A stretch of 36,255 nt of DNA from a virus. Taxonomy: Duplodnaviria; Heunggongvirae; Uroviricota; Caudoviricetes. The DNA lies in IMG/VR virus record IMGVR_UViG_2563366853_000005, positions 1 to 36,255 of that record. One strand, 5' to 3'. Made by a program: the position numbers and the translations under genes. Numbering within the stretch: the first letter of the stretch is position 1; each line of letters starts with the position of its first letter. Under the pieces are notes generated by a model. It was not told the origin of the DNA and searched no databases. It saw only the letters and a program-made list of their open reading frames with translations. Of the stretch, positions 8,590-36,255 are shown piece by piece.

Positions 8590-9084
8590 ATGGCCATGAT
8601 GATGATCTACGGCATGTTTGTTTTTGAGCTGCGCACGCTGCCGCATCAGCAGTTACAGCAAAACAAAAGCTGGCGGCATGTGAAAAATGAACGCGTTAAC
8701 CGTTCAGCAAGCTGGCAGTATATCGGTGCAGGTGATGATCGCATCGTTCTTTCTGGTGTGCTTTATCCTGAAATTACAGGTGGCGAAGTGTCGCTGTCGC
8801 TGCTGACCACGCAGGCGTATACAGGACGCCCCTGGCCTCTTATTGATGGCGTCGGGCAGATTTACGGCATGTATGTCCTGACCGAAACGAATACGACCCG
8901 TTCCGAGTTTGATCGCTACGGTAAGGCGAAAAAGATAGAATTTTCACTGACCCTTGAACGCTGTGATGAGGATTTGCGGGAGCGCCTGCAATCCTCATCG
9001 TTCAGCGATATGCTGTCCGGCTTCAAAGATAAAGTGACATCATCCCTTAACAGCGCGGCCAGTTCAGTTAAAGGGCTGTTCTGA
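8590..9084 (+). CDS. U: tail protein gpU
   Basis: 164-aa ORF immediately after T; size and position match P2 U. Confidence 0.8.
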   Translation: MAMMMIYGMFVFELRTLPHQQLQQNKSWRHVKNERVNRSASWQYIGAGDDRIVLSGVLYPEITGGEVSLSLLTTQAYTGRPWPLIDGVGQIYGMYVLTETNTTRSEFDRYGKAKKIEFSLTLERCDEDLRERLQSSSFSDMLSGFKDKVTSSLNSAASSVKGLF

Positions 9085-9435
9085 TTTAATGCTGGCCACT
9101 CATACCCTCATACCTGGTAATAAGTGGCCAGTCTTAACACTCACCATTTGATTGCACCAGTGTTAACGATTTGTTACTGGACATCAGACACGCTGGATAG
9201 CCAGTAGAAACATACCATTAAAATTATTACAATAATTGGTCACATGATTATCTTATGCTGAATAATAGAGATATGAATATTAATGAACTTAAAGATTGTA
9301 TTCACTATGAAGTAATCGGTAGCGAGCGTCCTTTCTCCTGGCGAAAGGCAATTGTTCGCGCAATAATGTCACAATAGGTGCTCATGCATTGGTATTGCAT
9401 GATATTCCAGATGATTCAACATTCATCACTAAATT

Positions 9436-21127: not shown

Positions 21128-22879
21128 ATGATTCAGGACGCTTTTGTGCGCCAGCGTGCGCGGCAACTTTACTGGCAGGGTTATCCGCCCGCAGAAATAT
21201 CACGTCTGATGGGAATAAACCCGAACACGATTTATGCGTGGAAAAAACGTGACCAGTGGGATGAAACGCCACCCGTGCAGCGTGTCACGCAGTCCATCGA
21301 TGCGCGCCTCATCCAGCTTACTGAAAAACAGAATAAAACAGGCGGTGACTTTAAGGAAATAGACCTGCTGACCCGGCAGCTTAAAAAGCTGCATGATGGC
21401 CAGCCGGATGTGATGGCCGCAGGAAAGAAAGGCCGGGCGAAAAAACTCAAAAATCATTTCACGCCGGAACAGATTGCCGCACTGCGGGAAAAAATCATCA
21501 GCAGGCTGGAGTGGCATCAGCGGGGCTGGTTTGACTCCCTGACCCTTTGCAGGGAAGCCGGGATACGTAACAGGATGATCCTGAAATCCCGACAGATTGG
21601 GGCGACCTGGTATTTTGCACAGGAAGCACTGCTGATGGCGCTGCGTGACGATGTGGCGCAACCTTACCAGCGTAACCAGATTTTTTTGTCTGCGTCGCGT
21701 CGTCAGGCGTTCCAGTTTAAAAGCATTATTCAGAAGGCCGCGGCTGAAGTTGATGTGGAGCTGAAAGGGGGCGATAAAATCATCCTCTCCAACGGCGCAG
21801 AGCTGCATTTTCTCGGCACTTCTGCTGCGTCGGCACAGTCCTATACGGGCAATTTTTATTTTGATGAATTTTTCTGGGTCAGTCGCTTTGCTGAACTGCG
21901 CAAGGTGGCTGGCGCTATAGCAACCCTCAGCGGACTGCGGCGCACCTACTTCTCCACGCCATCCACCGAAACGCACGAGGCATACGCCTACTGGAACGGC
22001 GACCGCTGGAACGAGAAAAAGGCCTCGCATAAACGCCAGCGTTTTTCTGTGGACTGGAAAACGCTGCATAACGGGCTTATCTGCCCTGACCGGACGTGGC
22101 GGCAAATTGTCACGCTGGAAGATGTGGTTAATCACGGCTGGAAACACACCGATATCGACGAAATTCGTGATGAAAACACCGAAGACGAGTTCCTCAATCT
22201 CTATATGTGTGAGTTTGTCCGCGAAGGGGAATCGGCATTTAACCTGAATATCCTGATTGGCTGCGGCGTTGACGGATACGACGACTGGAAAGACTGGAAA
22301 CCTTTTGCTCCCCGCCCGATGGGGAATCGTCCGGTATGGATTGGGTATGACGCAAACGGCAGCAGTGGCAACGGCGACAGCGGCGCTGTGTCCGTGGTGG
22401 TTCCTCCGTCTGTTCCTGGTGGCCGTTTTCGAACGGTGGAGACGCGACGCGTTCAGGGGCTGGAGTTTGAAGAACAGGCCAGAGTCATTGAAGAGTTCAC
22501 GTGTCGCTACAACGTGGAACACATCGGCATTGATGTGACGGGCGGGAACGGGGAGGCTGTTTATCAGATAGTGAAACGGTTTTTCCCTGCCGCTATTCCG
22601 TACACCTTCACGCTGTCATCAAAACGGTCGCTGGTACTGAAAATGCTGCAAATAATGCGTGCCGGGCGGTGGGAATACGATCGCGCCGAACGCGAGCTGG
22701 TCGCGGCCTTTAACGCCGTGCGTAAGGTGAAAACACCGGGCGGCTTTATCACTTACGAAACGGACCGAGCGAGGGGGATCAGCCACGGCGACCTTGCGTG
22801 GGCAACCATGCTTGCTGTCATTAACGAACCGATTGGCGGCGAAGGAGAAAACGAGCGTTTCACGGTTATGGAGTTCTGA
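21128..22879 (+). CDS. P: terminase large (ATPase) subunit gpP
   Basis: 583-aa ORF; position and size match P2 P; translationally coupled to Q (TGATG). Confidence 0.9.
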   Translation: MIQDAFVRQRARQLYWQGYPPAEISRLMGINPNTIYAWKKRDQWDETPPVQRVTQSIDARLIQLTEKQNKTGGDFKEIDLLTRQLKKLHDGQPDVMAAGKKGRAKKLKNHFTPEQIAALREKIISRLEWHQRGWFDSLTLCREAGIRNRMILKSRQIGATWYFAQEALLMALRDDVAQPYQRNQIFLSASRRQAFQFKSIIQKAAAEVDVELKGGDKIILSNGAELHFLGTSAASAQSYTGNFYFDEFFWVSRFAELRKVAGAIATLSGLRRTYFSTPSTETHEAYAYWNGDRWNEKKASHKRQRFSVDWKTLHNGLICPDRTWRQIVTLEDVVNHGWKHTDIDEIRDENTEDEFLNLYMCEFVREGESAFNLNILIGCGVDGYDDWKDWKPFAPRPMGNRPVWIGYDANGSSGNGDSGAVSVVVPPSVPGGRFRTVETRRVQGLEFEEQARVIEEFTCRYNVEHIGIDVTGGNGEAVYQIVKRFFPAAIPYTFTLSSKRSLVLKMLQIMRAGRWEYDRAERELVAAFNAVRKVKTPGGFITYETDRARGISHGDLAWATMLAVINEPIGGEGENERFTVMEF

Positions 22880-23925
22880 TGAGCAGAAAAAATAAAAAAG
22901 TGCGCATGAGTTCACGCATTGATCTCGCTGATGCGCTCAGGAAAGAATCATCGCTCAGTGCATTCACATTTGATGGTCCTTATCGCCTGACCGGGCATGA
23001 CCTGCTGGACAATATGTACTGTGCTGATAACGGGCGGTGGTATGAAACCCCGGTGGACTGGTACGGTCTGGCAAGAGCTGCCCGGCAAACGTCCTGGCAT
23101 CAGTCTGCGCTTTACTTTAAGCGCAATGTATTGCTCGGTTGCTACATCCCGCACCCGCTGCTTTCCCGGCAGGATTTCTCGGCGCTGGCGCTGGACTGGT
23201 TTGTGTTCGGTAACGCATTCCTTGAGCTTCGAAGCAATATGCTCGGCGAACCGCTTAAATTACGGCACGCACTGGCGAAATACATGCGACGCGGAAGCGA
23301 TCTTGAATCATGGTGGTATGTGCAGGATGGCAAGGATGCGTTTCAGTTTCGCCCAGGCAAAGTGTGTCACCTGATGAATCCTGACATTAACCAGGAAATC
23401 TACGGCATGCCGGAATATCTCGGCGCATTACTCTCGGCCAGCCTGTCTCATTCGGCGGACATGTTCAGAAAACTGTATTACGACAACGGATCCCACGCCG
23501 GGTGCATCATCTACATCGGTGCAGCGCAGGTAAACCGCGAAAGCATGGACTCCCTGAAAGAAACGCTACAGGGTGCGCGTGGTGGTGGTGCGTTTAAAAA
23601 CGTGCTCATTCATGCGCCCAACGGGGGCAAAGAGGGGGTGCAAATTTTGCCGTTCCAGCAGATCACCGCAAAGGATGAGTTCATGAATGTTAAGGCGGCA
23701 TCCCGTGATGATGTGCTGGCTGCGCACCGCGTTCCGCCGCAACTGATGGGGGCGATGCCGGGTGAAAAAAGTGCGTTTGGTGATGTGGAGAAGGCCGCGC
23801 GGGTTTACGCAATTAACGAGCTGATGCCCGTCATGGAGGCCATGAAGCACATCAATGACTGGCTTGGCGAAGAGGTGATCCGCTTTAACCCTTACGCACT
23901 GTTAGACATCCAGCCCACATCCTGA
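22879..23925 (+). CDS. Q: portal protein gpQ
   Basis: 348-aa ORF; position and size match P2 Q. Confidence 0.9.
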   Translation: MSRKNKKVRMSSRIDLADALRKESSLSAFTFDGPYRLTGHDLLDNMYCADNGRWYETPVDWYGLARAARQTSWHQSALYFKRNVLLGCYIPHPLLSRQDFSALALDWFVFGNAFLELRSNMLGEPLKLRHALAKYMRRGSDLESWWYVQDGKDAFQFRPGKVCHLMNPDINQEIYGMPEYLGALLSASLSHSADMFRKLYYDNGSHAGCIIYIGAAQVNRESMDSLKETLQGARGGGAFKNVLIHAPNGGKEGVQILPFQQITAKDEFMNVKAASRDDVLAAHRVPPQLMGAMPGEKSAFGDVEKAARVYAINELMPVMEAMKHINDWLGEEVIRFNPYALLDIQPTS

Positions 23926-23965: not shown

Positions 23966-24256
23966 TTTATGCCCCGACTCTCCAGCTCCTGTATCAGTCA
24001 GATAATTTCACGACGCTTTCCTGCTTATTGCCATCATCGACGGTCAGACTCTTACGCAATCCCACCGCGTTGACTGCATGTTCTTCGACGCCTCAGTGCG
24101 ATTTTGACGGCCTTACCTTTCACCCCATCAAATCAGAATCCCTCACGTCTTTTTCACACTCAGCGTGAGAAATACAGCCATTCTGTTGTGTTGCTGCGAC
24201 ATCGTTCAGGGGATGCTATTTACCCCCTGAAACGCGGGCTGTTCCCCCGTCACCTG

Positions 24257-24280
24257 CGCGCAGAAAAAGCGCGTTTTTTT
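24257..24280 (+). terminator. intrinsic terminator
   Basis: Stem CGCGC / GCGCG with loop AGAAAAA, followed by T7 (24274-24280). Confidence 0.6.
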
Positions 24281-24736
24281 GTGCACGCACGGATCCTTGA
24301 CGGATCCAGCCGCCACGCGGGCCGGAAGGGCAAAAAGTCGTTCAAAAAAATTGTGCAAATTTGTGCACTATTATGCAGTGTGTATCGTGCTGTTTTCTAC
24401 GTAAAGAACGGATGGTAAATTTGCTCGTAGCAGAGAAGATTTTAATGATCGCAAGATATGAAAAAAGATTCATAACCCTATTTGATGTGCATACTGTTTC
24501 AGGACTTGATATGTGACTGTATAACTGGGGCCACATCGTTGGAAGTTTTAAAGGACTAAGGTAATTATTATGGCATTCAATTAAAAACAATACTATATAC
24601 TATTTGATAACTATTTTTCAGCATGAAGAACCTTTAATTAATTATATGATTTTTTGTGATTGCAAATTTTTTAGATAAATAGCAAGATATCATAAATCAT
24701 TATTATTCGTTTGCTTTTTTAATGAGAGTGTTTGTT

Positions 24737-24742
24737 TATAAT
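24737..24742 (+). promoter_or_regulatory. candidate -10 element (TATAAT) for the KAP NTPase gene
   Basis: Perfect TATAAT 38 bp upstream of the ATG at 24780 in an AT-rich context; the -35 is not obvious. Confidence 0.3.
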
Positions 24743-24779
24743 GCTAATTTAATTTCAATAAGGAAAAAATGGAGTTACT

Positions 24780-26144
24780 ATGAATATAACTACTAATCAG
24801 AATGGTTTTGAGAATGGTTTTGATATTACATCTGACATATTTAATCGTAAGACATTATATGATCAAATGATACGGCTTATTATTAATGCTCCTGACTCAA
24901 ATTTGGTTTTTGCGTTAGATGATATATGGGGTAGCGGTAAAACATCATTTGTTAAGATGTTAAAATCAGAATTAGAATTAACTAATAGTGAATATATAGA
25001 TGTTGTTTATTTCGATGCATTTGAAAATGATTATCAATCAGATCCATTTATTTCAATATCATCTGAACTATATAATTTACTAAAACACAGAGGAGTAGAG
25101 GCCGAAGATGTAGCTGATCGCATTATTAAAACTGGTAAGAAAATAGGTGCAAAAATATTAATCGGAGGTGCAAAGGTAGCTATTACAACCCTGACAGCAG
25201 GTGTTGTGAATGGTTCTGCTCTTGATGAGGCAGGAAAAACAGTTAGCGATTCCATTAATAGTGAGTTAGAGTCTTTTGTTGAAGAGAAAATAAAATCCAT
25301 GGAGCAGGAAAAAAACTCAATTGCTGACTTTAAAAAAGCTTTAGAAGAAATATATACAAATACAAAGAGAAAAACCTTGATTATTATTGATGAACTTGAT
25401 CGAGCCCGCCCAGATTATTCTCTAGAGCTATTGGAAAAAATTAAGCATCTTTTTTCTGTGAAAGGTATGGTTTTCTTATTGGTAATGAATCGAGAGCAAT
25501 TTGAAAAGGGAATTGCATATAAATATGGTGATATCAATACTGGTCTGTACTTGAATAAATTTATTCATTATTGGTTTTCTTTGCCCAAAATAAATATGTA
25601 TGACTCTATGGTGTTACAAGCATCTAACAAAACAACGATTACAACGTATATTAAAAAAACTCTACAACAGAATCACTCTCTAGGTATTAATACAGATGGT
25701 GCTTTTGTAAGAGTCTTATCATGCTTGATTGAAACCAATAATTGCTCGCTGCGAGAAGTTGAACGATGTATTTCAACTATGCTTGTAGTGGATAATCATA
25801 CGTGTATAGCGAATAATGATGATAATTATTATATGATTGCATTAGCATTGGTTTGTTTCTTGAAAGTAACTTCTCCAGATATGTTAAATCGACTACTTAA
25901 GAAGGAAATGTCTTCTGAAGAGATATTAGAATTACTTAATATAAAATCTGATTATTTTTCATCAAAGACGGAAATTAAATTGCTTAAAGAACTATTGGAT
26001 TATTATTACATCGATAAAGAAACATTAAAACTATTACGTAATGAAAAGGGAAGTTATGTTCAGCGTATAGAAGGTGATTTTGCGTTTGAATATAACCATA
26101 TCTTTAATATTTCCACATCAATAGCTAATATGACTATAAAATAA
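24780..26144 (+). CDS. KAP-family P-loop NTPase (PifA-like), candidate anti-phage defence protein
   Basis: Walker A within DDIWGSGKTSF (aa 47-57, the WGSGK(T/S) form typical of KAP NTPases), Walker B LIIIDELDRA (aa about 199-208), a hydrophobic stretch GAKILIGGAKVAITTLTAGVV between them; GGAG RBS 5 nt upstream; visibly AT-rich relative to flanking phage genes. Confidence 0.8.
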   Translation: MNITTNQNGFENGFDITSDIFNRKTLYDQMIRLIINAPDSNLVFALDDIWGSGKTSFVKMLKSELELTNSEYIDVVYFDAFENDYQSDPFISISSELYNLLKHRGVEAEDVADRIIKTGKKIGAKILIGGAKVAITTLTAGVVNGSALDEAGKTVSDSINSELESFVEEKIKSMEQEKNSIADFKKALEEIYTNTKRKTLIIIDELDRARPDYSLELLEKIKHLFSVKGMVFLLVMNREQFEKGIAYKYGDINTGLYLNKFIHYWFSLPKINMYDSMVLQASNKTTITTYIKKTLQQNHSLGINTDGAFVRVLSCLIETNNCSLREVERCISTMLVVDNHTCIANNDDNYYMIALALVCFLKVTSPDMLNRLLKKEMSSEEILELLNIKSDYFSSKTEIKLLKELLDYYYIDKETLKLLRNEKGSYVQRIEGDFAFEYNHIFNISTSIANMTIK

Positions 26145-26364
26145 GAACTGTGAGTCATATTTAATCACTAAGATAATTGAAGCCTTAAATGATTGGACTT
26201 AGGGCTTTACTTATTTTTATTATTTGAAGTTGTTTAAGCCCACTATGTTACATAGTTTGTGGTCCATACCAATTTAATTTTATTGGCATTTCATAGATAC
26301 ACATGTTCTGTGTGAATATCCTTCTTTTATTTATCATTTGATTTTCAAACTCCGTTTCTTTTGA

Positions 26365-29127
26365 TTATTTGTTCCCACTCTTTACTCCTCTTCGCAGTAG
26401 GTCAGCTTTGTGGCAGGCGCGTTCGGTTGTTTCACAGATTCTTTGTGTGTGCTCTGTGTCGTGAATGGCGCGCAGCATGTCAGAAAGCACAGTAACGGGG
26501 GTTTTCATGGTGTTCTGGTCCTGCTGAAGTGTGGATGCCAGGCGTGCGGCGGCTTTGGGGTCTGATGCCCCCAGCTGTTCCAGATAGCTGGCGACCGGGT
26601 TATGGCGGATCTCCGTGCTGCTTACGCCGTGATTACGGCTCAGGCGCTGCCAGAGCTGCGTGATTCGGCTGTCCGGGCGGGTATCCGGTTTGCGTACAAT
26701 TTCAAATCCCTGCGGTGAAATGATGCTGCCGTCAACGTACAGACTGCCGCCCCGTAACAGGTGCTGCATCTGCTGTTCACCGATATGCAGGCCGAGAGAT
26801 TCAGCGGACTCCCGCCATTCTTTAGCGAGTAATTCGTGGTTATCAGGCAAAGGCCGCTGCTGTTTGCGGCTCTGTGTCCAGCTCTGCATTTCATCACTGC
26901 TGTTTTTTGCCTGTTTGTCACGCAGCGAACGCATCAGCGCCCGGCGTTCGTGCCGTTTCAGTGAGCGCATCCATTCATCCACATCAACGCCGTCAGGAAG
27001 CTGCGGCCACGGTGCTGGCCGTTCTTCCGGCTGTTCTGTCCCGTTGTTGTCCGTTTCCTGTACACGGGGACAGTTATTGCCACGAGTCCAAGGGGCGGCA
27101 GGGCCGCCCTGAAGGTCAAAACCATTTTCGCGGGCGCTGTCTTCCGCTTCCGGTTTGCGTCTTACCAGCTTCCAGTTATCCGGATGCGTGCACACACGGG
27201 AGGATTCCCCGATGAGTGGTGACCAGATCCCGTAAATCTGTACGCTCTGTTCGCCGTAATCGTTCAGCTCATCGGCGAGGTCGTAGGCGGTGCGAATCAG
27301 GTAGTCTTTGCGTGGAACAAGTACGCCGCCCTGTTTCTCTATGTAGGTGGCAAAACATCCTGCATCAGCGGCAGCGAGTACCGCATCCATTGCGTCATCC
27401 TTCAGCCGTTGCGGGCCTTCCGGGTTGCGTGCCATCTGGCTGGCAAGGCGGCGGAGTTCACGCCACACCTGACGGGAGGGGATGCCAAAGAACTGGAACT
27501 GGCGGACCCGGTGAAGGCGTGCCCAACCGATGGCGCGCTCCACGCTCTCGGCCATTGATTTTCCGGTTTCGTGGTCAACGCGTGGTTTGCCTGTTTTCTG
27601 GTCGATGCCATCCACGGCGCGGCTGTCCAGGTTTTTTCCGATGTAGGTGGCGATGTAGCTGGTTGGCGTGCCTTTTGAGCCGTCGACATACTCCGCCTTA
27701 AAGCGCGGAGTAATATCATCGCCCAGCTCGTGACGATCTTCCTGAATGGCAATATCGCGGGTGTGGGACACAATGGTGTCGATTTCTTCCGGATGAGCAA
27801 AGACCATCATATGCCAGTGCACGGTGCCGTCATGGTGAGGCTCCACCGTGCGGATGCCATACCAGCGCAGGCCGTCGCGGTTCAGTTTCTTGCGGACCGC
27901 TGCAAAAAACGTGTTAACCAGGTAATCGCTGGAGTCGCGCATGGTGGCCCCGTTCCATTTGGGATTCGGATGACCGTTCTCTGTTGTGGCGTGGTATTTT
28001 GACGGGCAGGTGACAGTCAGAAACACCGCTTTGTCGCCACGGGCTTCGGCCAGAAGTTCCAGCCCCTTCATGGTGGCCATCATTTCTGCCTTACGGTGAA
28101 CCGGGTTACTTACTCCCGCGTAATACACTGTCTCGAGATCAATCGTGAACCCGTCTTCGTTTTCCAGCATGAAACTTTTCAGGAAATCGCGTGTTTTCTC
28201 GCGCTGTGCGCGAAACTCGCTTAACGCGTCCTGGCTCAGATAGGGTGATGTTTTTCTGGAAACCAGACAGGCGGCGCGGAGTTGTTCTTCTCTCCACTCG
28301 CAACGTAACAGCCACAGTTTGCGTTTCCACCATTCCGCACAGGTCAGGCGAAGGATTGCGCCCGGCAGCAGCTCCGTGTCCGGTTCGTTCCTCCGGTCTT
28401 TATCTGTTGTCAGTGCGTCATAATGTGGAGGCATGATGTGCAGGTGTAACGCCATGCGGGCCAGCATCTGATACGCCTTCAGCGTTACATCCATGGTCAG
28501 TTCGCCATCGGTCGCGCCAAAGCCATCGCAGAGTTTTTCGAAGGTGCTGCTGAACATCGCCGCCGTCATGGTGGCCAGCGTCTGTATCTGGTGTTTGTTG
28601 AGCTGCGGCAGGTAAAGCAAATCGTCCAGGCGTTCGCGTCCGGCAAGGGAGCGATAACCCGGTGTCAGCCAGTGTCCGTCAGTGCGATCCAGACGTTCGA
28701 ATATTTTGCGCAGGGTTCCGCGTGCATAGCGTTCCGCCTGCCAGCTCTTTTTGCCTTTCCGGCGATCGGCTTCCTGTTTTTTGCGCAGGAAGGAGAGGTG
28801 GCGAATAAGTGGATCGCGCAGATAGGACGGCAGCAGGCGCAGCGAGGCCATGGCTTCATCCACCGCGCCGCGTGCCTGTTTTCTGGCGTCTCCTGCCAGT
28901 GCGATGGTTTTGTCCTGTTTTTCCTGTGCGTCCAGGCTTTTATTAATCAGGTTGCCCAGCGGCGTGGCGGAGAACGCCGCATCAGCCATTTTCTGGCGGC
29001 GCTCGTTCTCTGCCCGGTAGGCATCCAGCCAGGAGGAAAGCACGGATTCAGGAGCGGGGATCCCCGTTCCTTCACGCCCTACTGCGTGGCGCGGTTGTTG
29101 CCAGTCCCTGATGTACTCTGTCGTCAT
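26365..29127 (-). CDS. A: replication initiation protein gpA (rolling-circle HUH endonuclease); start uncertain, C-terminal extension relative to P2 A
   Basis: Blocks shared with P2 A including VEPHHDGTVHWHMMVF (P2: VEPHHDGTPHWHMML), FLTVTCPSKYH (P2: FITLTAPSKYH), YIATYIGKNLD (P2: YIAKYISKNID). Confidence 0.85.
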   Translation of the reverse strand: MTTEYIRDWQQPRHAVGREGTGIPAPESVLSSWLDAYRAENERRQKMADAAFSATPLGNLINKSLDAQEKQDKTIALAGDARKQARGAVDEAMASLRLLPSYLRDPLIRHLSFLRKKQEADRRKGKKSWQAERYARGTLRKIFERLDRTDGHWLTPGYRSLAGRERLDDLLYLPQLNKHQIQTLATMTAAMFSSTFEKLCDGFGATDGELTMDVTLKAYQMLARMALHLHIMPPHYDALTTDKDRRNEPDTELLPGAILRLTCAEWWKRKLWLLRCEWREEQLRAACLVSRKTSPYLSQDALSEFRAQREKTRDFLKSFMLENEDGFTIDLETVYYAGVSNPVHRKAEMMATMKGLELLAEARGDKAVFLTVTCPSKYHATTENGHPNPKWNGATMRDSSDYLVNTFFAAVRKKLNRDGLRWYGIRTVEPHHDGTVHWHMMVFAHPEEIDTIVSHTRDIAIQEDRHELGDDITPRFKAEYVDGSKGTPTSYIATYIGKNLDSRAVDGIDQKTGKPRVDHETGKSMAESVERAIGWARLHRVRQFQFFGIPSRQVWRELRRLASQMARNPEGPQRLKDDAMDAVLAAADAGCFATYIEKQGGVLVPRKDYLIRTAYDLADELNDYGEQSVQIYGIWSPLIGESSRVCTHPDNWKLVRRKPEAEDSARENGFDLQGGPAAPWTRGNNCPRVQETDNNGTEQPEERPAPWPQLPDGVDVDEWMRSLKRHERRALMRSLRDKQAKNSSDEMQSWTQSRKQQRPLPDNHELLAKEWRESAESLGLHIGEQQMQHLLRGGSLYVDGSIISPQGFEIVRKPDTRPDSRITQLWQRLSRNHGVSSTEIRHNPVASYLEQLGASDPKAAARLASTLQQDQNTMKTPVTVLSDMLRAIHDTEHTQRICETTERACHKADLLRRGVKSGNK

Positions 29128-30173: not shown

Positions 30174-31004
30174 TTACTTCACCGGAACAAACGGAACAGC
30201 GGTGTTGCTGGTCATGTATTGCGGCAGCGTGCCGTTCCATTTGTTGATTGCTTCCAGCTCCATAACGCCGGGATTCTGGCGCAGAGCTTCACCGCGTAAA
30301 CGAATGGCGTCGGCTTCAGCCTGGGCTTTTGTGCGAATGGCATCAGCCTGTCCGGCAGCTTCTGCGCGCAACATGTTGGCTTCAGCTTCGCGTTGCTTGA
30401 CTTCCTGTTCGCGTTGCAGGGTTTTCTGGTTTGCCGTGACTTTGGCATTAATGCTGTCGATAACGGTTGACGGGTACTCCGGCTTACCCACATATGAGAG
30501 GCTCATTACCTGAATACCGATAGGTGTCATTTCCTCCTGAATGTCTTTAAGAGCTGCATCCAGTAGTTCAGATTTCCCGCCGTCGATAAATTTGTCGGTG
30601 GTCATTTTGCTGGCCAGTCGGTTGAGTGCATCGGCGATCTTCTGGCGCAGGTCAGTGTCGGTAATGTCATCCACGCCTTTGCGGTAGGTCTGAAACACTG
30701 TAGTAACTTTGGATGGATCAACCTTGTAGGCCACACCGATGTGATAGCCGATGGTTGTGCCGTCACTCATCTGGAAGCTGAACGGCTCATCGTAGGTCTT
30801 CATTTGTTTGAAGGTCGGGAAGATGTAAACCTCGGTATTCCAGCCAGTCCAGTAGCGGCCAACGCCAACCACTTCGCCGACGCCTTTGTCGTCGCCCAGT
30901 TTGTTGACTTTGATGCCCACATTACCTGGCTCAACGCGATCGCAACCAACCAGCAGGATGGCGGCAAAAAGCGGGATAATCTGAAAGAGTTTGAATTTCT
31001 TCAT
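30174..31004 (-). CDS. SPFH / band-7 (stomatin-prohibitin-HflK/C-like) lipoprotein
   Basis: Lipoprotein signal MKKFKLFQIIPLFAAILLVG-C; SPFH-like core followed by an Ala/Glu-rich coiled coil (QREQEVKQREAEANMLRAEAAGQADAIRTKAQAEADAIRLRGEA); ATG overlaps the stop of the upstream small membrane protein gene (ATGA). Confidence 0.75.
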   Translation of the reverse strand: MKKFKLFQIIPLFAAILLVGCDRVEPGNVGIKVNKLGDDKGVGEVVGVGRYWTGWNTEVYIFPTFKQMKTYDEPFSFQMSDGTTIGYHIGVAYKVDPSKVTTVFQTYRKGVDDITDTDLRQKIADALNRLASKMTTDKFIDGGKSELLDAALKDIQEEMTPIGIQVMSLSYVGKPEYPSTVIDSINAKVTANQKTLQREQEVKQREAEANMLRAEAAGQADAIRTKAQAEADAIRLRGEALRQNPGVMELEAINKWNGTLPQYMTSNTAVPFVPVK

Positions 31005-33466: not shown

Positions 33467-33601
33467 ATTAAAACTCTGTACCTTCGGTAAGGTGTACTCG
33501 TGTCACCTTGTATTGATTTGTGGTATTTTTTGTGTGTCTAGGACTTGGACTGGCCGGTTCAGGTCCTGGCTTATGTTTAATTAAATTGTTTAGAGGTTTT
33601 C

Positions 33602-33793
33602 ATGTCAGAAGATAAAAAAGTTGTTAATTTGTTGAGTGACCTTAGTGCTGCTCTGGATAACATTAACCCTCCTAGGGTAAAAACGACGGGTGATAAAGAC
33701 GCATTAAACGCAGAGATTCATATATTACTGGCGTTAGTAACTGACAAAATTCAGCGTAAATACCCACCTGTCACACAACTGGTTGATTTTTAA
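33602..33793 (+). CDS. small hypothetical protein (63 aa) on the opposite strand, AT-rich
   Basis: AGAGG RBS 5 nt upstream; convergent with the 140-aa gene; hairpin 9 nt after its stop. Confidence 0.45.
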   Translation: MSEDKKVVNLLSDLSAALDNINPPRVKTTGDKDALNAEIHILLALVTDKIQRKYPPVTQLVDF

Positions 33794-33799
33794 TTTGAT

Positions 33800-34222
33800 T
33801 TATGCCGGGCTGCTCCCGGCATCTTCTAGCTGCCATAATGTCTCGTCACCTGATAGAGCAAAACGAAATGAGTGAAGTATATCCTCCCGAGAGAAGCTCA
33901 CGGCTACAGCTGCGGGAAAGTCAAATATAATCCCACCTTCATTTTTAAAACGATTACGCAATTGATAGGCTATCGGTTTGATTTGTGCAGGAAGAGTATC
34001 TATATCTCTTCCATTGACAACAGAATCTTTGTTTTCAAGTACTGATTTAGCGATTAGATATAGATGCCAGTAACTGGTTACAATTGTTACTCCTGTGATG
34101 TGTCGTAAATTAATTGCAATTCGTCCGTTATTATGTTTTTCCGCAAGGTATTTCAGGTTATCAATTAATGCTTGGTCATTTTTTGAAATAGTTATTGTGA
34201 AATCTGACGTGTTTGTTTTCAT
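33800..34222 (-). CDS. hypothetical protein (140 aa), AT-rich moron immediately downstream of cox
   Basis: AGAGG RBS about 11 nt upstream; starts 4 nt after the cox-like stop; visibly AT-rich. Confidence 0.6.
   Translation of the reverse strand: MKTNTSDFTITISKNDQALIDNLKYLAEKHNNGRIAINLRHITGVTIVTSYWHLYLIAKSVLENKDSVVNGRDIDTLPAQIKPIAYQLRNRFKNEGGIIFDFPAAVAVSFSREDILHSFRFALSGDETLWQLEDAGSSPA
33802..33822. other. GC hairpin between convergent genes (possible bidirectional terminator)
   Basis: AT-GCCGGG-ctgct-CCCGGC-AT; overlaps the last codons of the 140-aa gene; no clear U-run. Confidence 0.35.
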
Positions 34223-35193: not shown

Positions 35194-35262
35194 CTCTACA
35201 CATTGAGCGAATTACATATCGCAAGGAGTGTTTAGTTAATTTATCCGTTGGAGGGGCTAATC

Positions 35263-36255
35263 ATGTCGATTAAGCAACTCAAAGACGGACGTTATCAGGT
35301 CGATGTCAGACCGCAGGGGGCGGAAGGAAAGCGGATTCGAAAAATCTTTGCCCTGAAATCAAAGGCTCAGGAGTTTGAGAAGTATGTGTTACAGAACTTT
35401 CATGACAAGCCATGGCAGGCTAAGCCAGCTGATCAGCGGCGATTATCAGAGCTGCTTGATGCGTGGTGGATGCTTGATGGTCGTAATCAGGCTTACGGGG
35501 ATAGCTACAGGGTTAGGCTAGGGAAGGTTGTTCGTGAAATGGGAGATCCTCGCGCCAGTCAGATGACGCGAAAATTTATGCTTGAATATCGGTCAGAGAA
35601 ATTACAGGCTGGATTAATGCCGTCCAGTATTAATCGTGACTTATGCGTACTGTCTACCATGTTCACGGTGCTGATTGAAGCTGAGGTCTTTCACAACGCG
35701 AACCCTGTACGCGGTATACGAAAACTGAAAGTTCAGAACACAGAGATGGCCTTTCTTTCTGATGATGAGATTGAACGGCTTCTTGAGCGACTGGAGGGTG
35801 ATGCGCGTCGTGTTGCCATTCTGTGTCTTTCTACTGGTGCCCGATGGAGTGAAGCATCGGAACTACGTGGAGAGCATATCGTTGGCAACCGGGTGACGTT
35901 CTTTAACACCAAAAACGGAAAATCCCGTTCGGTTCCTGTGGCGGATTCGGTCGTGCCTCTGATTAAAACCCGTCGAACGGGGTTATTGTATCAGGTTGAT
36001 TATCTGAAGTTCCGGGAGATTCTTCAGGAGGTGAAACCGGATTTGCCGAAGGGGCAGGCTACGCATGTCATGCGTCATACATTTGCCACACACTTTATGA
36101 TGAATGGCGGAAATATTGTTACGTTGCAACGAATCCTGGGGCACGCAACGATTCAGCAAACAATGACGTACGCTCATTTTTCGCCGGACTTCTTACAGGA
36201 CGCGATCAACTTTAATCCGCTGGCTGAAAGTGTCCATAAACTGTCCATCGATTAG
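35263..36255 (+). CDS. int: tyrosine integrase, P2 Int family (start at ATG 35263; track start 35248 is TTG)
   Basis: MSIKQLKDGRYQVDVRPQG aligns to the P2 Int N-terminus (MAIKKLDDGRYEVDIRPTG); catalytic region ...HVMRHTFATHFMMNGGNIVTLQRILGHATIQQTMTYAHF with the conserved R, H-x-x-R and Y; GGAGGGG RBS 5 nt upstream; stop TAG at 36253-36255. Confidence 0.9.
   Translation: MSIKQLKDGRYQVDVRPQGAEGKRIRKIFALKSKAQEFEKYVLQNFHDKPWQAKPADQRRLSELLDAWWMLDGRNQAYGDSYRVRLGKVVREMGDPRASQMTRKFMLEYRSEKLQAGLMPSSINRDLCVLSTMFTVLIEAEVFHNANPVRGIRKLKVQNTEMAFLSDDEIERLLERLEGDARRVAILCLSTGARWSEASELRGEHIVGNRVTFFNTKNGKSRSVPVADSVVPLIKTRRTGLLYQVDYLKFREILQEVKPDLPKGQATHVMRHTFATHFMMNGGNIVTLQRILGHATIQQTMTYAHFSPDFLQDAINFNPLAESVHKLSID

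Follow-up and report, generated by a model that had tools for sequence, protein, structure and literature searches.

A KAP-family P-loop NTPase gene as putative single-gene anti-phage cargo in the portal–GpA interval of a P88-like Escherichia coli prophage

PifA of the F plasmid, a 741-aa protein whose gene adjoins that of its repressor, pifC, contains a KAP NTPase module with an insert between Walker A and Walker B. It excludes phage T7 upon detecting gp1.2 or gp10. Exclusion is abortive and goes along with membrane depolarisation and nucleotide leakage, and the protein is reported to lack transmembrane helices (PMC13001434). EF_KAP, a Firmicutes protein predicted to have transmembrane helices and ending in a C-terminal region of 322 aa, and three metagenomic ORFs are single-gene KAP NTPases that confer up to 10^6-fold protection; this defence depends on Walker B, and abortive infection is reportedly not how EF_KAP works (PMC13552941). 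Reve, from a hotspot of P4 satellites, has been validated as giving 10^2- to 10^6-fold protection against Drexlerviridae (Moura de Sousa et al. 2026, PMC13586616). RdrA of the RADAR system (approximately 800–900 aa) works with the deaminase RdrB, and QatA, a KAP-like ATPase of approximately 600–650 aa, belongs to QatABCD. PifA has been known for decades, EF_KAP and Reve only since 2026. PADLOC further lists, under the label PDC ("phage defence candidate"), the single-gene candidate PDC-S20. We found no experiment on any PDC-S20 member and no paper naming PDC-S20 in the searchable literature, and the literature on KAP_NTPase/PF07693 in defence catalogues yielded nothing specific to it.

The window analysed here, that is the whole stretch of 36,255 nt, comes from a P88-like phage (Xuanwuvirus, P2 family) that is an E. 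coli prophage. Two backbone genes frame the region of interest: on the left, the portal gene (GpQ homologue; 22879..23925, + strand), which matches the portal protein family phrog_68 at 7.3e-153, and on the right, the replication gene A (GpA homologue; 26365..29127, − strand), which matches phrog_91, "nicking at origin of replication", at 3.1e-268. These assignments agree with a preliminary description of this DNA, which had placed the end of Q at 23925 and the stop of A at 26365. The portal protein is 100% identical to the P88 portal and to portals of E. coli prophages with different cargo, and comparison with the GpA proteins of P88 and 569R5 indicates that GpA has 920 aa here versus 940 aa, its C-terminus being 20 aa shorter than in P88. 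Next to the portal gene, a cos-like motif, CGCGGGCTGTTCCCCCGTCACCTGC (24232..24256), presumably a part of the phage backbone, is kept in divergent P2-like loci. It resembles the reverse complement of GGCGAGGCGGGGAAAGCAC, a 19-mer found in P4 fragments that we take to be the P2/P4 cohesive end.

Between the portal gene and cos on one side and gene A on the other lies an AT-rich cargo island (24381..26351; 1,971 bp, 29.7% GC), whose edges were determined by blastn against P88 and vB_EcoM-569R5. Homology to P88 ends at 24380 and restarts at 26352, which almost exactly matches the extent previously proposed (24380-26364). The GC content is 0.25–0.33 in the 400-bp windows spanning 24400-26399, versus 0.50–0.59 in both flanks and 53% in the rest of the window, and a windowed scan found values below 0.38 nowhere else in the whole window; likewise, GC3 is 0.22 in the KAP gene versus 0.62 in Q and 0.64 in A. 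The observation of an AT-rich island encoding a KAP protein, far richer in AT than its neighbours, is thus confirmed. Its sole long ORF (24780..26144, + strand; 454 aa) is intact and convergent with the 920-aa ORF at 26365..29127 (− strand), just as had been described. Direct or inverted repeats were absent from the flanks, and a transposon or insertion sequence origin of the island was rejected. Searches with Rfam gave no family match in the island, and a noncoding RNA or riboswitch was also discarded, the only candidates in the 399-bp leader or the 3' spacer being two sub-threshold chance matches to a eukaryotic miRNA family.

The portal-to-A interval behaves as a swap site in the P88-like lineage. 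The same portal (WP_000087812.1) is found with KAP, with ImmA/IrrE (plus a hypothetical gene) or with HTH+PIN cargo, and in P88 the interval between portal and A is occupied by the partition genes ParM/ParR. The left flank is common to 274 E. coli genomes and the island is found in one, out of 5,426 complete E. coli genomes; relatives with an identical portal and 97–99% identical terminase and capsid lack the KAP gene. The main documented defence hotspot of P2 is the corresponding GpA–GpQ interval (PMC13586616; PMC9122126). The P2 old/tin locus occupies the same genomic position, from gene A to cos, and the island had been assigned to this P2 tin/old hotspot; swapping does occur in the lineage, but the phage is P88-like and not P2 proper. 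On the P2 map, old reads from the cos side towards A and is convergent with A, as is the KAP gene, whereas the two proteins are unrelated, because Old is an OLD-family ATPase-nuclease.

The 454-aa protein was recognized from its motifs as a KAP-family member, and profile searches bear this out: the match to PF07693 reaches 132.9 bits, the cut-off being 20 (E = 1.8e-38; residues 27–337 against profile positions 5–289 of 293), and phrog_8614, annotated in PHROGs as "unknown function", matches at 1.3e-102. The Walker A and Walker B motifs noticed at the outset are both intact and invariant in 38 homologues. In Walker A (W50-G-S-G-K54-T-S56; codons 24927..24947, + strand), the invariant positions are W50, G51, G53, and K54, and at least 90% of homologues also share T55. 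Walker B (L200-I-I-I-D204-E205; codons 25377..25394, + strand), is followed by a conserved LDRARPD, and D204, E205, D207, R208, and P211 are all invariant, as are N237 and R325/R329, in homologues down to 35% identity. A dN/dS ratio of 0.10 against the homologue with 81% identity indicates, at the level of sequence, that the gene is under purifying selection.

Within the P-loop domain, an insert of approximately 90 residues (106–195; 25095..25364, + strand) is predicted by AF2 to form a helical hairpin, with helices at 106–139 and 152–195 and a Gly/Ala/Thr-rich, Lys-containing tip whose residues 127–163 have pLDDT below 50; G123 and K132 are each retained by no fewer than 90% of homologues. 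In many KAP-family members, the NTPase domain is accompanied by transmembrane helices. The preliminary description had reported a hydrophobic insertion between the Walker motifs. The insert is indeed there, but it contains no demonstrable membrane segment: a canonical transmembrane helix is not supported by the hydropathy of the insert across the 38 homologues (0.8–1.6). Since the top 19-mer reaches a Kyte–Doolittle value of 1.49, below the usual transmembrane cut-off of 1.6, and since K132 is conserved, we describe the insert as rather hydrophobic, with no clear membrane helix. The C-terminal domain (residues 336–454; 25785..26141, + strand), predicted to be all-helical, is the most variable part of the protein, and a structure search matched it to no solved fold. 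A Pfam-type domain search of the 454-aa protein recognized no effector domain, and searching PDB sequences, be it with the single sequence or with a profile, gave no relative with a solved structure; the AF2 model of the entire protein has a pLDDT of 80.3 and a pTM of 0.74.

The preliminary description had pointed to the defence catalogues as a check, and the best match there is PADLOC PDC-S20 (PDLC04959, 8.1e-76; residues 17–417 against profile positions 17–404 of 464), followed by further PDC-S20 models, PDLC04956 at 1.3e-60 and PDLC04957 and PDLC04958 at about 1e-25. The single-gene layout, the length of approximately 450 aa, and the KAP NTPase domain are all shared, and nothing structural distinguishes the family from the protein described here, which these profile matches identify as a member of the candidate family PDC-S20 and not as a new kind of system. 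PDC-S20 has thousands of members in Pseudomonadota, Bacteroidota, Campylobacterota and beyond, and about 4,450 clusters of proteins of approximately 450 aa share the full-length architecture (E ≤ 1e-30).

None of the better known systems is as close. The kinship with PifA proposed earlier holds insofar as both proteins contain the KAP module, including the insert between Walker A and Walker B, but PifA is only a distant relative. BLASTP gave 18% identity over 374 residues (E = 9e-10), confined to PifA residues 9–356; hhalign gave a probability of 96.5% (columns 33–378 against PifA residues 28–359), with PifA aligned through the insert region 106–195; and the PADLOC PifA model matched at only 1.3e-16 (positions 38–260 of 720). 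PifA is longer (741 vs. 454 aa), its C-terminal 380 residues or so being devoid of any counterpart, and orthology was rejected because the alignment is limited to the NTPase module, with 18% identity. Both proteins are encoded on mobile elements; PifA reportedly has no transmembrane helices, and hydropathy gives no clear one in ours. RdrA is the closest structural relative, with a sequence identity of 12–14%; membership in RADAR was rejected on scores and on the absence of the RdrB partner, no RdrB-like gene being present at this locus. Matches to QatA are weak (PADLOC, 3e-13; NCBIfam NF041923, 51.1 bits against a curated cut-off of 600) and qatB, qatC, and qatD are missing from the island, on which grounds this assignment was also rejected. 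Reve, whose DNA we recovered from the supplementary dataset of a preprint and translated into 586 aa, shares the Pfam pair PF07693 and PF13401, the single-gene layout, a GC content of about 30%, and a niche that is likewise a cos-adjacent hotspot of the P2/P4 pair. However, its spacing from Walker A to Walker B is much shorter, and it belongs to a different KAP subfamily; orthology was rejected (BLASTP, 25% identity over 126 residues, E = 0.07; no match to the family profile), and the Reve phenotype is not transferable to our protein because the two are not detectably related beyond the P-loop. EF_KAP, which we compared by its description, is also a single protein that combines a KAP NTPase domain with a C-terminal region of no known fold.

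Prophages of Escherichia, Enterobacter, Klebsiella, and Salmonella encode homologues of the KAP protein with 81, 69, 63, 47, and 45% identity, which lie in the same slot beside cos and read in the same direction, and others with 36–40% identity occupy this slot in Proteus and Providencia; altogether, six genera of divergent P2-like prophages carry a homologue (36–81% identity) there. Some homologues have co-cargo beside them, either IetA/IetS, AbiU, or RmrA (RosmerTA-like), but the gene is solitary here and in two other lineages (loci L015 and L018), in prophages of Klebsiella and Salmonella. The earlier view of a single-gene module is in keeping with this pattern of solitary genes and, elsewhere, varying neighbours, and it is highly probable that the gene acts by itself. 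Among more distant relatives, 5 of 20 immediate neighbours (in 4 of 12 loci) are restriction genes or other PADLOC defence genes, and one homologue with 38% identity sits in a relaxase-bearing element. The identity between KAP proteins does not track that of the portal, capsid, or GpA, for which reason vertical co-inheritance with the phage backbone was rejected. Composition, presence in a single one of the 5,426 complete E. coli genomes, and an identity pattern unlike that of the backbone together establish that the island was horizontally acquired, as the preliminary description had maintained.

We interpret the island as a single-gene cargo cassette in the portal/cos-to-GpA hotspot carrying a putative anti-phage defence gene, with a probability of roughly 70%. 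Alternatively, the fixed position beside cos might stem from a phage-related function, such as lysogenic conversion or a step of the phage life cycle (e.g., membrane-associated signalling that serves the prophage or its host), or a role at cos or in packaging that would explain the proximity to cos. The retention of slot and orientation across very divergent P2-like phages and the noncommittal PHROGs annotation would suit such a gene, and not all cargo of this interval is defensive, because P88 carries ParM and partition genes there. On the other hand, near relatives with the same portal and nearly the same terminase and capsid lack the gene, which is confined to one complete E. coli genome; the restriction and other defence genes next to its non-phage relatives, the IetAS, AbiU, and RosmerTA-like genes that neighbour it in the slot, and the match to a defence-candidate model also speak against such a role, which we regard as unlikely.

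A second alternative concerns the target. In their original description, by Aravind and colleagues in 2004, KAP NTPases are said to have been proposed as excluders of selfish replicons, and the protein might act on other mobile elements (plasmids, P4-like satellites, or P2-like phages that superinfect the lysogen) or stabilise the prophage as a toxic module of the addiction type. PifA is plasmid-borne, the 38% homologue resides in a relaxase-bearing element, and P2-like phages are parasitised by P4 satellites (PMC13586616), all of which is compatible with conflict between elements. We nevertheless consider this quite improbable, because the KAP proteins examined to date act against lytic phages, nothing at the locus points specifically to satellites, and the homologous loci display neither a conserved antitoxin-like partner nor an overlapping small ORF.

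A terminator-like hairpin with a T-run (24256..24281, + strand; six pairs, five of them GC) had been described as an intrinsic terminator bracketing the gene upstream. The hairpin and T-run are present, but they belong to the phage backbone and not to the cassette: they lie in DNA 96% identical to P88, which has no KAP gene, and abut the cos-like motif, and the terminator scan returned two such sites against 1.7 expected by chance. At the boundary between backbone and cargo, a TTGTGCA-repeat palindrome (I7) with a T-run (24344..24375, − strand) is terminator-like for leftward transcription, with a match on the − strand at 24368-24353 inside the palindrome; three other loci (L007, L011, and L015) have this motif at the corresponding boundary, and P88 homology stops just past it. 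The AT-rich leader that follows (24381..24779, + strand; 399 bp, 28% GC) contains the perfect TATAAT noted earlier (24737-24742), which does not rise above chance: its −35 match is 2/6, the island has two such hexamers on the + strand and three on the − strand against 3.8 expected per strand, and a promoter scan found nine sites against 11.8 expected, that is, no enrichment. A conserved promoter was rejected, the upstream regions of six homologous loci aligning only with the closest one. The GGAG at 24771-24774, 5 nt ahead of the ATG, constitutes a good ribosome-binding site. In the 3' intergenic spacer that separates the KAP gene from the convergent gene A (26145..26364), the scan called no terminator on either strand.

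In E. coli, DNA as AT-rich as this (30% GC) may undergo silencing, and the absence of promoter-like sites above chance, the lack of an effector domain, and the partner proteins needed by RdrA and QatA could suggest silent cargo not expressed in the lysogen, or an orphan of a multi-gene system (compare QatA without QatBCD, RdrA without RdrB), but this is very improbable. The gene is solitary in Klebsiella and Salmonella prophages too, and any neighbours it has elsewhere belong to known systems that differ from locus to locus and suffice by themselves. Decay is made unlikely by the strong purifying selection and by the invariance of the catalytic residues. Approximately 4,450 clusters have the same full-length architecture, and the QatA score of 51 bits is far under the curated 600.

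For the preferred reading, a defence gene, the most likely role would be to shield the lysogen from other phages, the KAP protein being both sensor and switch. A phage-derived trigger would be recognized by the variable C-terminal helical domain, and the conserved Walker A, Walker B, sensor-1, and arginine residues, on binding or hydrolysing ATP, would then drive assembly into a ring or oligomer, as modelled on RdrA and on STAND/ORC-type ATPases. As output, (a) the conserved Gly/Ala/Thr-rich hairpin of the ATPase domain might disturb the inner membrane, in analogy to the membrane leakage caused by PifA, or (b) a phage component might be trapped or remodelled at the expense of ATP. Either particular output is doubtful, and membrane insertion is speculative because the hairpin falls below transmembrane hydrophobicity and has a conserved Lys. 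A bolder and distinctly less probable idea is that the "minimal KAP" family of approximately 450 aa (PDC-S20/phrog_8614) is a complete immune protein with no enzymatic effector, in which sensing by the C-terminal domain would set off ATP-driven ring assembly, and the rings would bundle their conserved, heptad-patterned Gly/Ala/Thr/Lys hairpins into a membrane-active or pore-like structure. If true, this would be a novel output among AAA+/STAND-like immune ATPases and perhaps a simple model for PifA.

Overall, the interpretation given in the preliminary description is supported, every part of it that could be tested computationally having held, with anti-phage activity as a putative function and abortive infection as a hypothetical mode of action. 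For E. coli genomics, the locus adds a further case of fast cargo exchange at the portal–GpA site of the P2 family, here in a P88-like genus. Because the KAP gene is solitary in a well-understood E. coli hotspot, with conserved catalytic residues and a confident structural model, it is easily testable. If it protects, it would provide the first functional evidence found for PADLOC PDC-S20 and a compact, 454-aa single-protein model for the KAP NTPase defence proteins.

The window is essentially a single prophage, lying directly downstream of the host seryl-tRNA synthetase gene serS (1-1293; Pfam Seryl_tRNA_N and tRNA-synt_2b); next to serS come P2-type genes for tail, head, and packaging, and the end of the integrase gene (35248-36255) coincides with that of the window. 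The 10 kb around the AT-rich island match Escherichia phage P88 and related phages (Peduoviridae, genus Xuanwuvirus) at 97% identity, so that the host phage is a P88-like member of the P2 family and not P2 proper, a correction to the preliminary description. Between the portal gene Q, which ends at 23925, and the replication gene A (26365..29127, 920 aa), windowed GC falls from 0.50-0.59 to 0.25-0.33 from about 24400 to about 26400, the sole trough of such depth in the window, which bears out the AT-rich stretch first noticed there. Homology to P88 and vB_EcoM-569R5, two related phages without the island, ends at 24380 and restarts at 26352, which delimits the island as 24381-26351 (1,971 bp, 29.7% GC vs. 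53% for the rest of the window). As described, it holds one long ORF convergent with A, at 24780..26144 (+), which encodes the 454-aa KAP protein; GC3 is 0.22 for this gene, whereas Q and A reach 0.62 and 0.64. No direct or inverted repeats were found flanking the island, and no Rfam family matched within it, which argues for cassette exchange by recombination; transposition is ruled out by the absence of flanking repeats. The right junction (26349-26367) is located within the 3'-terminal part of gene A. The replication protein GpA ends here in ...GVKSGNK*, whereas in P88 and vB_EcoM-569R5 it runs 20 residues further (...SGNKKQTETGLTNPANEQKTRSDI*), indicating that the cargo exchange trimmed its C-terminal tail.

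Two other genes to the right of A deserve mention. An SPFH/Band-7 domain protein (30174-31004, - strand; Pfam 1.8e-30), encoded between gene A and the immunity region, is annotated as "lipoprotein" in P88, has no PADLOC match, and is an accessory-looking membrane protein. A 140-aa ORF (33800-34222, - strand) adjoins the regulator genes inside a patch of 38% GC (33601-34200) and has no Pfam or PHROG match (thresholds 0.001 and 1e-5/0.001); because a minor P2 defence hotspot has been reported between integrase and primase (PMC13586616), this ORF could be another small piece of cargo.

On the left side, a cos-like motif at 24232-24256 (CGCGGGCTGTTCCCCCGTCACC / CGCGGGCTGTTCCCCCGTCACCTGC) lies in the backbone. 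CGCGGGCTGTTCCCCCGTCACC, once reverse-complemented, is similar to GGCGAGGCGGGGAAAGCAC, the P2/P4 cohesive end, a string found in P4 fragments. The record of a related phage, LR595891, begins near window position 24332 instead of at this motif. A terminator-like + strand hairpin with a T-run begins immediately at the motif end (24256-24281). It had been proposed as a terminator bracketing the gene, and it does exist, but it sits in backbone DNA common to P88, itself devoid of the island, and terminator-like sites number 2 vs. 1.7 expected. The perfect TATAAT at 24737-24742 is likewise present but not above chance (2 and 3 copies on the two island strands vs. 3.8 expected per strand; 9 promoter-like sites vs. 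11.8 expected), with a -35 matching at 2/6 positions, and neither signal carries weight. Comparison of the upstream regions of homologous loci revealed no conservation beyond the closest locus. Given these uninformative signals and a good ribosome-binding site (GGAG, 5 nt upstream of the KAP ATG), expression in the lysogen is plausible, if unproven. The exact switch point from backbone to cargo is a TTGTGCA-repeat palindrome at 24344-24375 (AAAATTGTGCAAATTTGTGCACTATTATGCA), and akin repeats occur at the same boundary upstream of KAP genes in three divergent P2-like loci (L007, L011, and L015). Because its - strand reading gives a hairpin and T-run, the palindrome could act as a terminator of the leftward early operon ahead of cos; alternatively, it could be the anchor at which recombination swaps cargo.

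P2-like prophages have their principal defence hotspot in the GpA-GpQ interval (PMC13586616; PMC9122126), and this interval acts as a swap site in the P88-like lineage too. Prophages with an identical portal protein hold other cargo, either ImmA/IrrE and a hypothetical gene or HTH+PIN with ParM remnants, and P88 holds ParM and a partition protein in the portal-A interval, in agreement with the hotspot initially proposed. In E. coli 2013C-3181, the HTH+PIN cargo adjoins what is left of parM and the partition gene as pseudogenes (8995-9146 of locus L024). This points to ParM/ParR as the earlier occupant of the P88-like slot, displaced through partial deletion when defence cargo came in. The left flank is common to 274 complete E. 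coli genomes, only one of which, APEC E12053, has the island (99.3% identical); its annotation there names the gene product a "KAP family P-loop NTPase fold protein".

KAP homologues at 81, 69, 63, 47, and 45% identity, from P2-like prophages of Escherichia/metagenomes, Enterobacter, Klebsiella, and Salmonella, occupy the same slot after portal and cos, in the same orientation and convergent with A; homologues at 36-40% occupy it in Proteus and Providencia. The genes between the KAP homologue and A vary. In three two-system hotspots (L004, 7551-10923; L007, 7550-9238; L011, 7637-9290), the KAP gene always lies on the cos side, and its co-cargo is IetA/IetS, AbiU, or a RosmerTA-like pair (RmrA-like M78 peptidase and DUF3368/PIN protein), while nothing separates it from A in L015, L018, or this window. 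KAP identity does not track backbone identity (81% in L004, where portal, capsid, and GpA share 70, 48, and 31%; 45% in L018, where the portal shares 32%), indicating that the gene moves between phage lineages yet holds its slot, with a GC of about 30-34% everywhere. Together with the GC/GC3 contrast and the single E. coli genome carrying the island, this upholds horizontal acquisition. A 38% homologue also occurs in a relaxase-bearing element of Pectobacterium (L020/L021, 7744-11168), directly upstream of a cluster of HxsD and two radical-SAM genes. In other phyla, restriction enzymes (Type I, IIG, or III) or further PADLOC entries make up 5/20 of the immediate neighbours of distant relatives (4/12 loci).

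The assignment to KAP-type P-loop NTPases held: PF07693 scored 132.9 bits (cut-off 20), with AAA_22 also matched, and W50, G51, G53, K54 (Walker A), D204, E205 (Walker B), D207, R208, N237, R325, and R329, a full set of ATPase residues, are invariant across 38 homologues with identities as low as 35%. The dN/dS is 0.10 relative to the 81% homologue. Searching 1.84 billion representatives with a profile returned 4,450 clusters at E ≤ 1e-30, and almost every one of the top 150 is a full-length protein of some 425-490 aa, pointing to a large, coherent family of ~450-aa architecture; the PHROGs family is phrog_8614. A 12-nt tandem repeat (AATGGTTTTGAG/AATGGTTTTGAT, 24802-24835) produces a duplicated N-terminal motif, NGFE-NGFD, whose second copy contains two residues that never vary across the family, G13 and F14. 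The AlphaFold2 model (pLDDT 80.3, pTM 0.74) comprises an AAA+/STAND-like core, an inserted helical hairpin (residues 106-195, with a low-confidence tip at 127-163), and an all-helical C-terminal part. The hydrophobic insertion noticed earlier is real as an inserted element, though no clear membrane segment: its top hydrophobic 19-mer reaches 1.49 (0.8-1.6 in the family), its pattern is heptad-like in Gly/Ala/Lys (IGAKILI GGAKVAI TTLTAGV), with G123 and K132 kept in at least 90% of homologues, and it does not read as a canonical membrane helix. Overall, the protein is an ATPase of RdrA/STAND-like fold, intact and under selection, whose inserted hairpin is conserved and whose variable C-terminal domain matches no known fold.

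The proposed check against a defence catalogue gave a clear match. By far the best PADLOC match is the single-gene candidate PDC-S20 (8.1e-76, residues 17-417), under which the protein is filed as a member of a candidate family only; a literature search found no paper on PDC-S20 by name. PADLOC PifA (1.3e-16) and QatA (3e-13) match the NTPase core only, and NCBIfam QatA scores 51 bits vs. a cut-off of 600. The suggested kinship with PifA (741 aa, next to pifC on the F plasmid) reduces to a distant one: the N-terminal NTPase module alone is common (18% identity over 374 residues, hhalign probability 96.5%), and the alignment extends through the insert region, PifA being said to have no transmembrane helices (PMC13001434). 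Reve, a single-gene KAP system of the P4 hotspot, protects 10^2-10^6-fold against Drexlerviridae (PMC13586616); its 586-aa sequence, recovered from the preprint's dataset, has no detectable relation to the KAP protein beyond the P-loop (E = 0.07, no match to the family profile), and this relationship was rejected. EF_KAP, reported as non-abortive, and three metagenomic KAP proteins have been validated as single-gene defences; they depend on Walker B, and their C-terminal regions lack a known fold (PMC13552941). Single-gene KAP defence is therefore already a known kind.

The initial observation is confirmed, and its interpretation, once corrected, is supported; from context, which is the main argument, we infer an anti-phage role with a probability of about 0.7, and the protein very probably acts on its own. 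The abortive infection initially suggested is no more than one possible mode of action. The protein contains no enzymatic effector domain. Its C-terminal domain could sense a phage product, and nucleotide-dependent oligomerisation would then switch it on. The hairpin might perturb the membrane, by analogy with PifA (PMC13001434), or a phage component might be trapped or remodelled in an ATP-driven manner; either output is a tentative and rather doubtful proposal. A non-defence lysogenic or lifecycle role is improbable, and competition with satellites or plasmids, or an addiction module, is a little more so, given the patchy distribution, defence neighbours, purifying selection, and recurrent solitary arrangement of the gene. 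The same four features make an orphan component or silent cargo the least likely explanation. As a putative defence gene, the KAP gene offers a clean experimental entry point into the very large candidate defence family PDC-S20.
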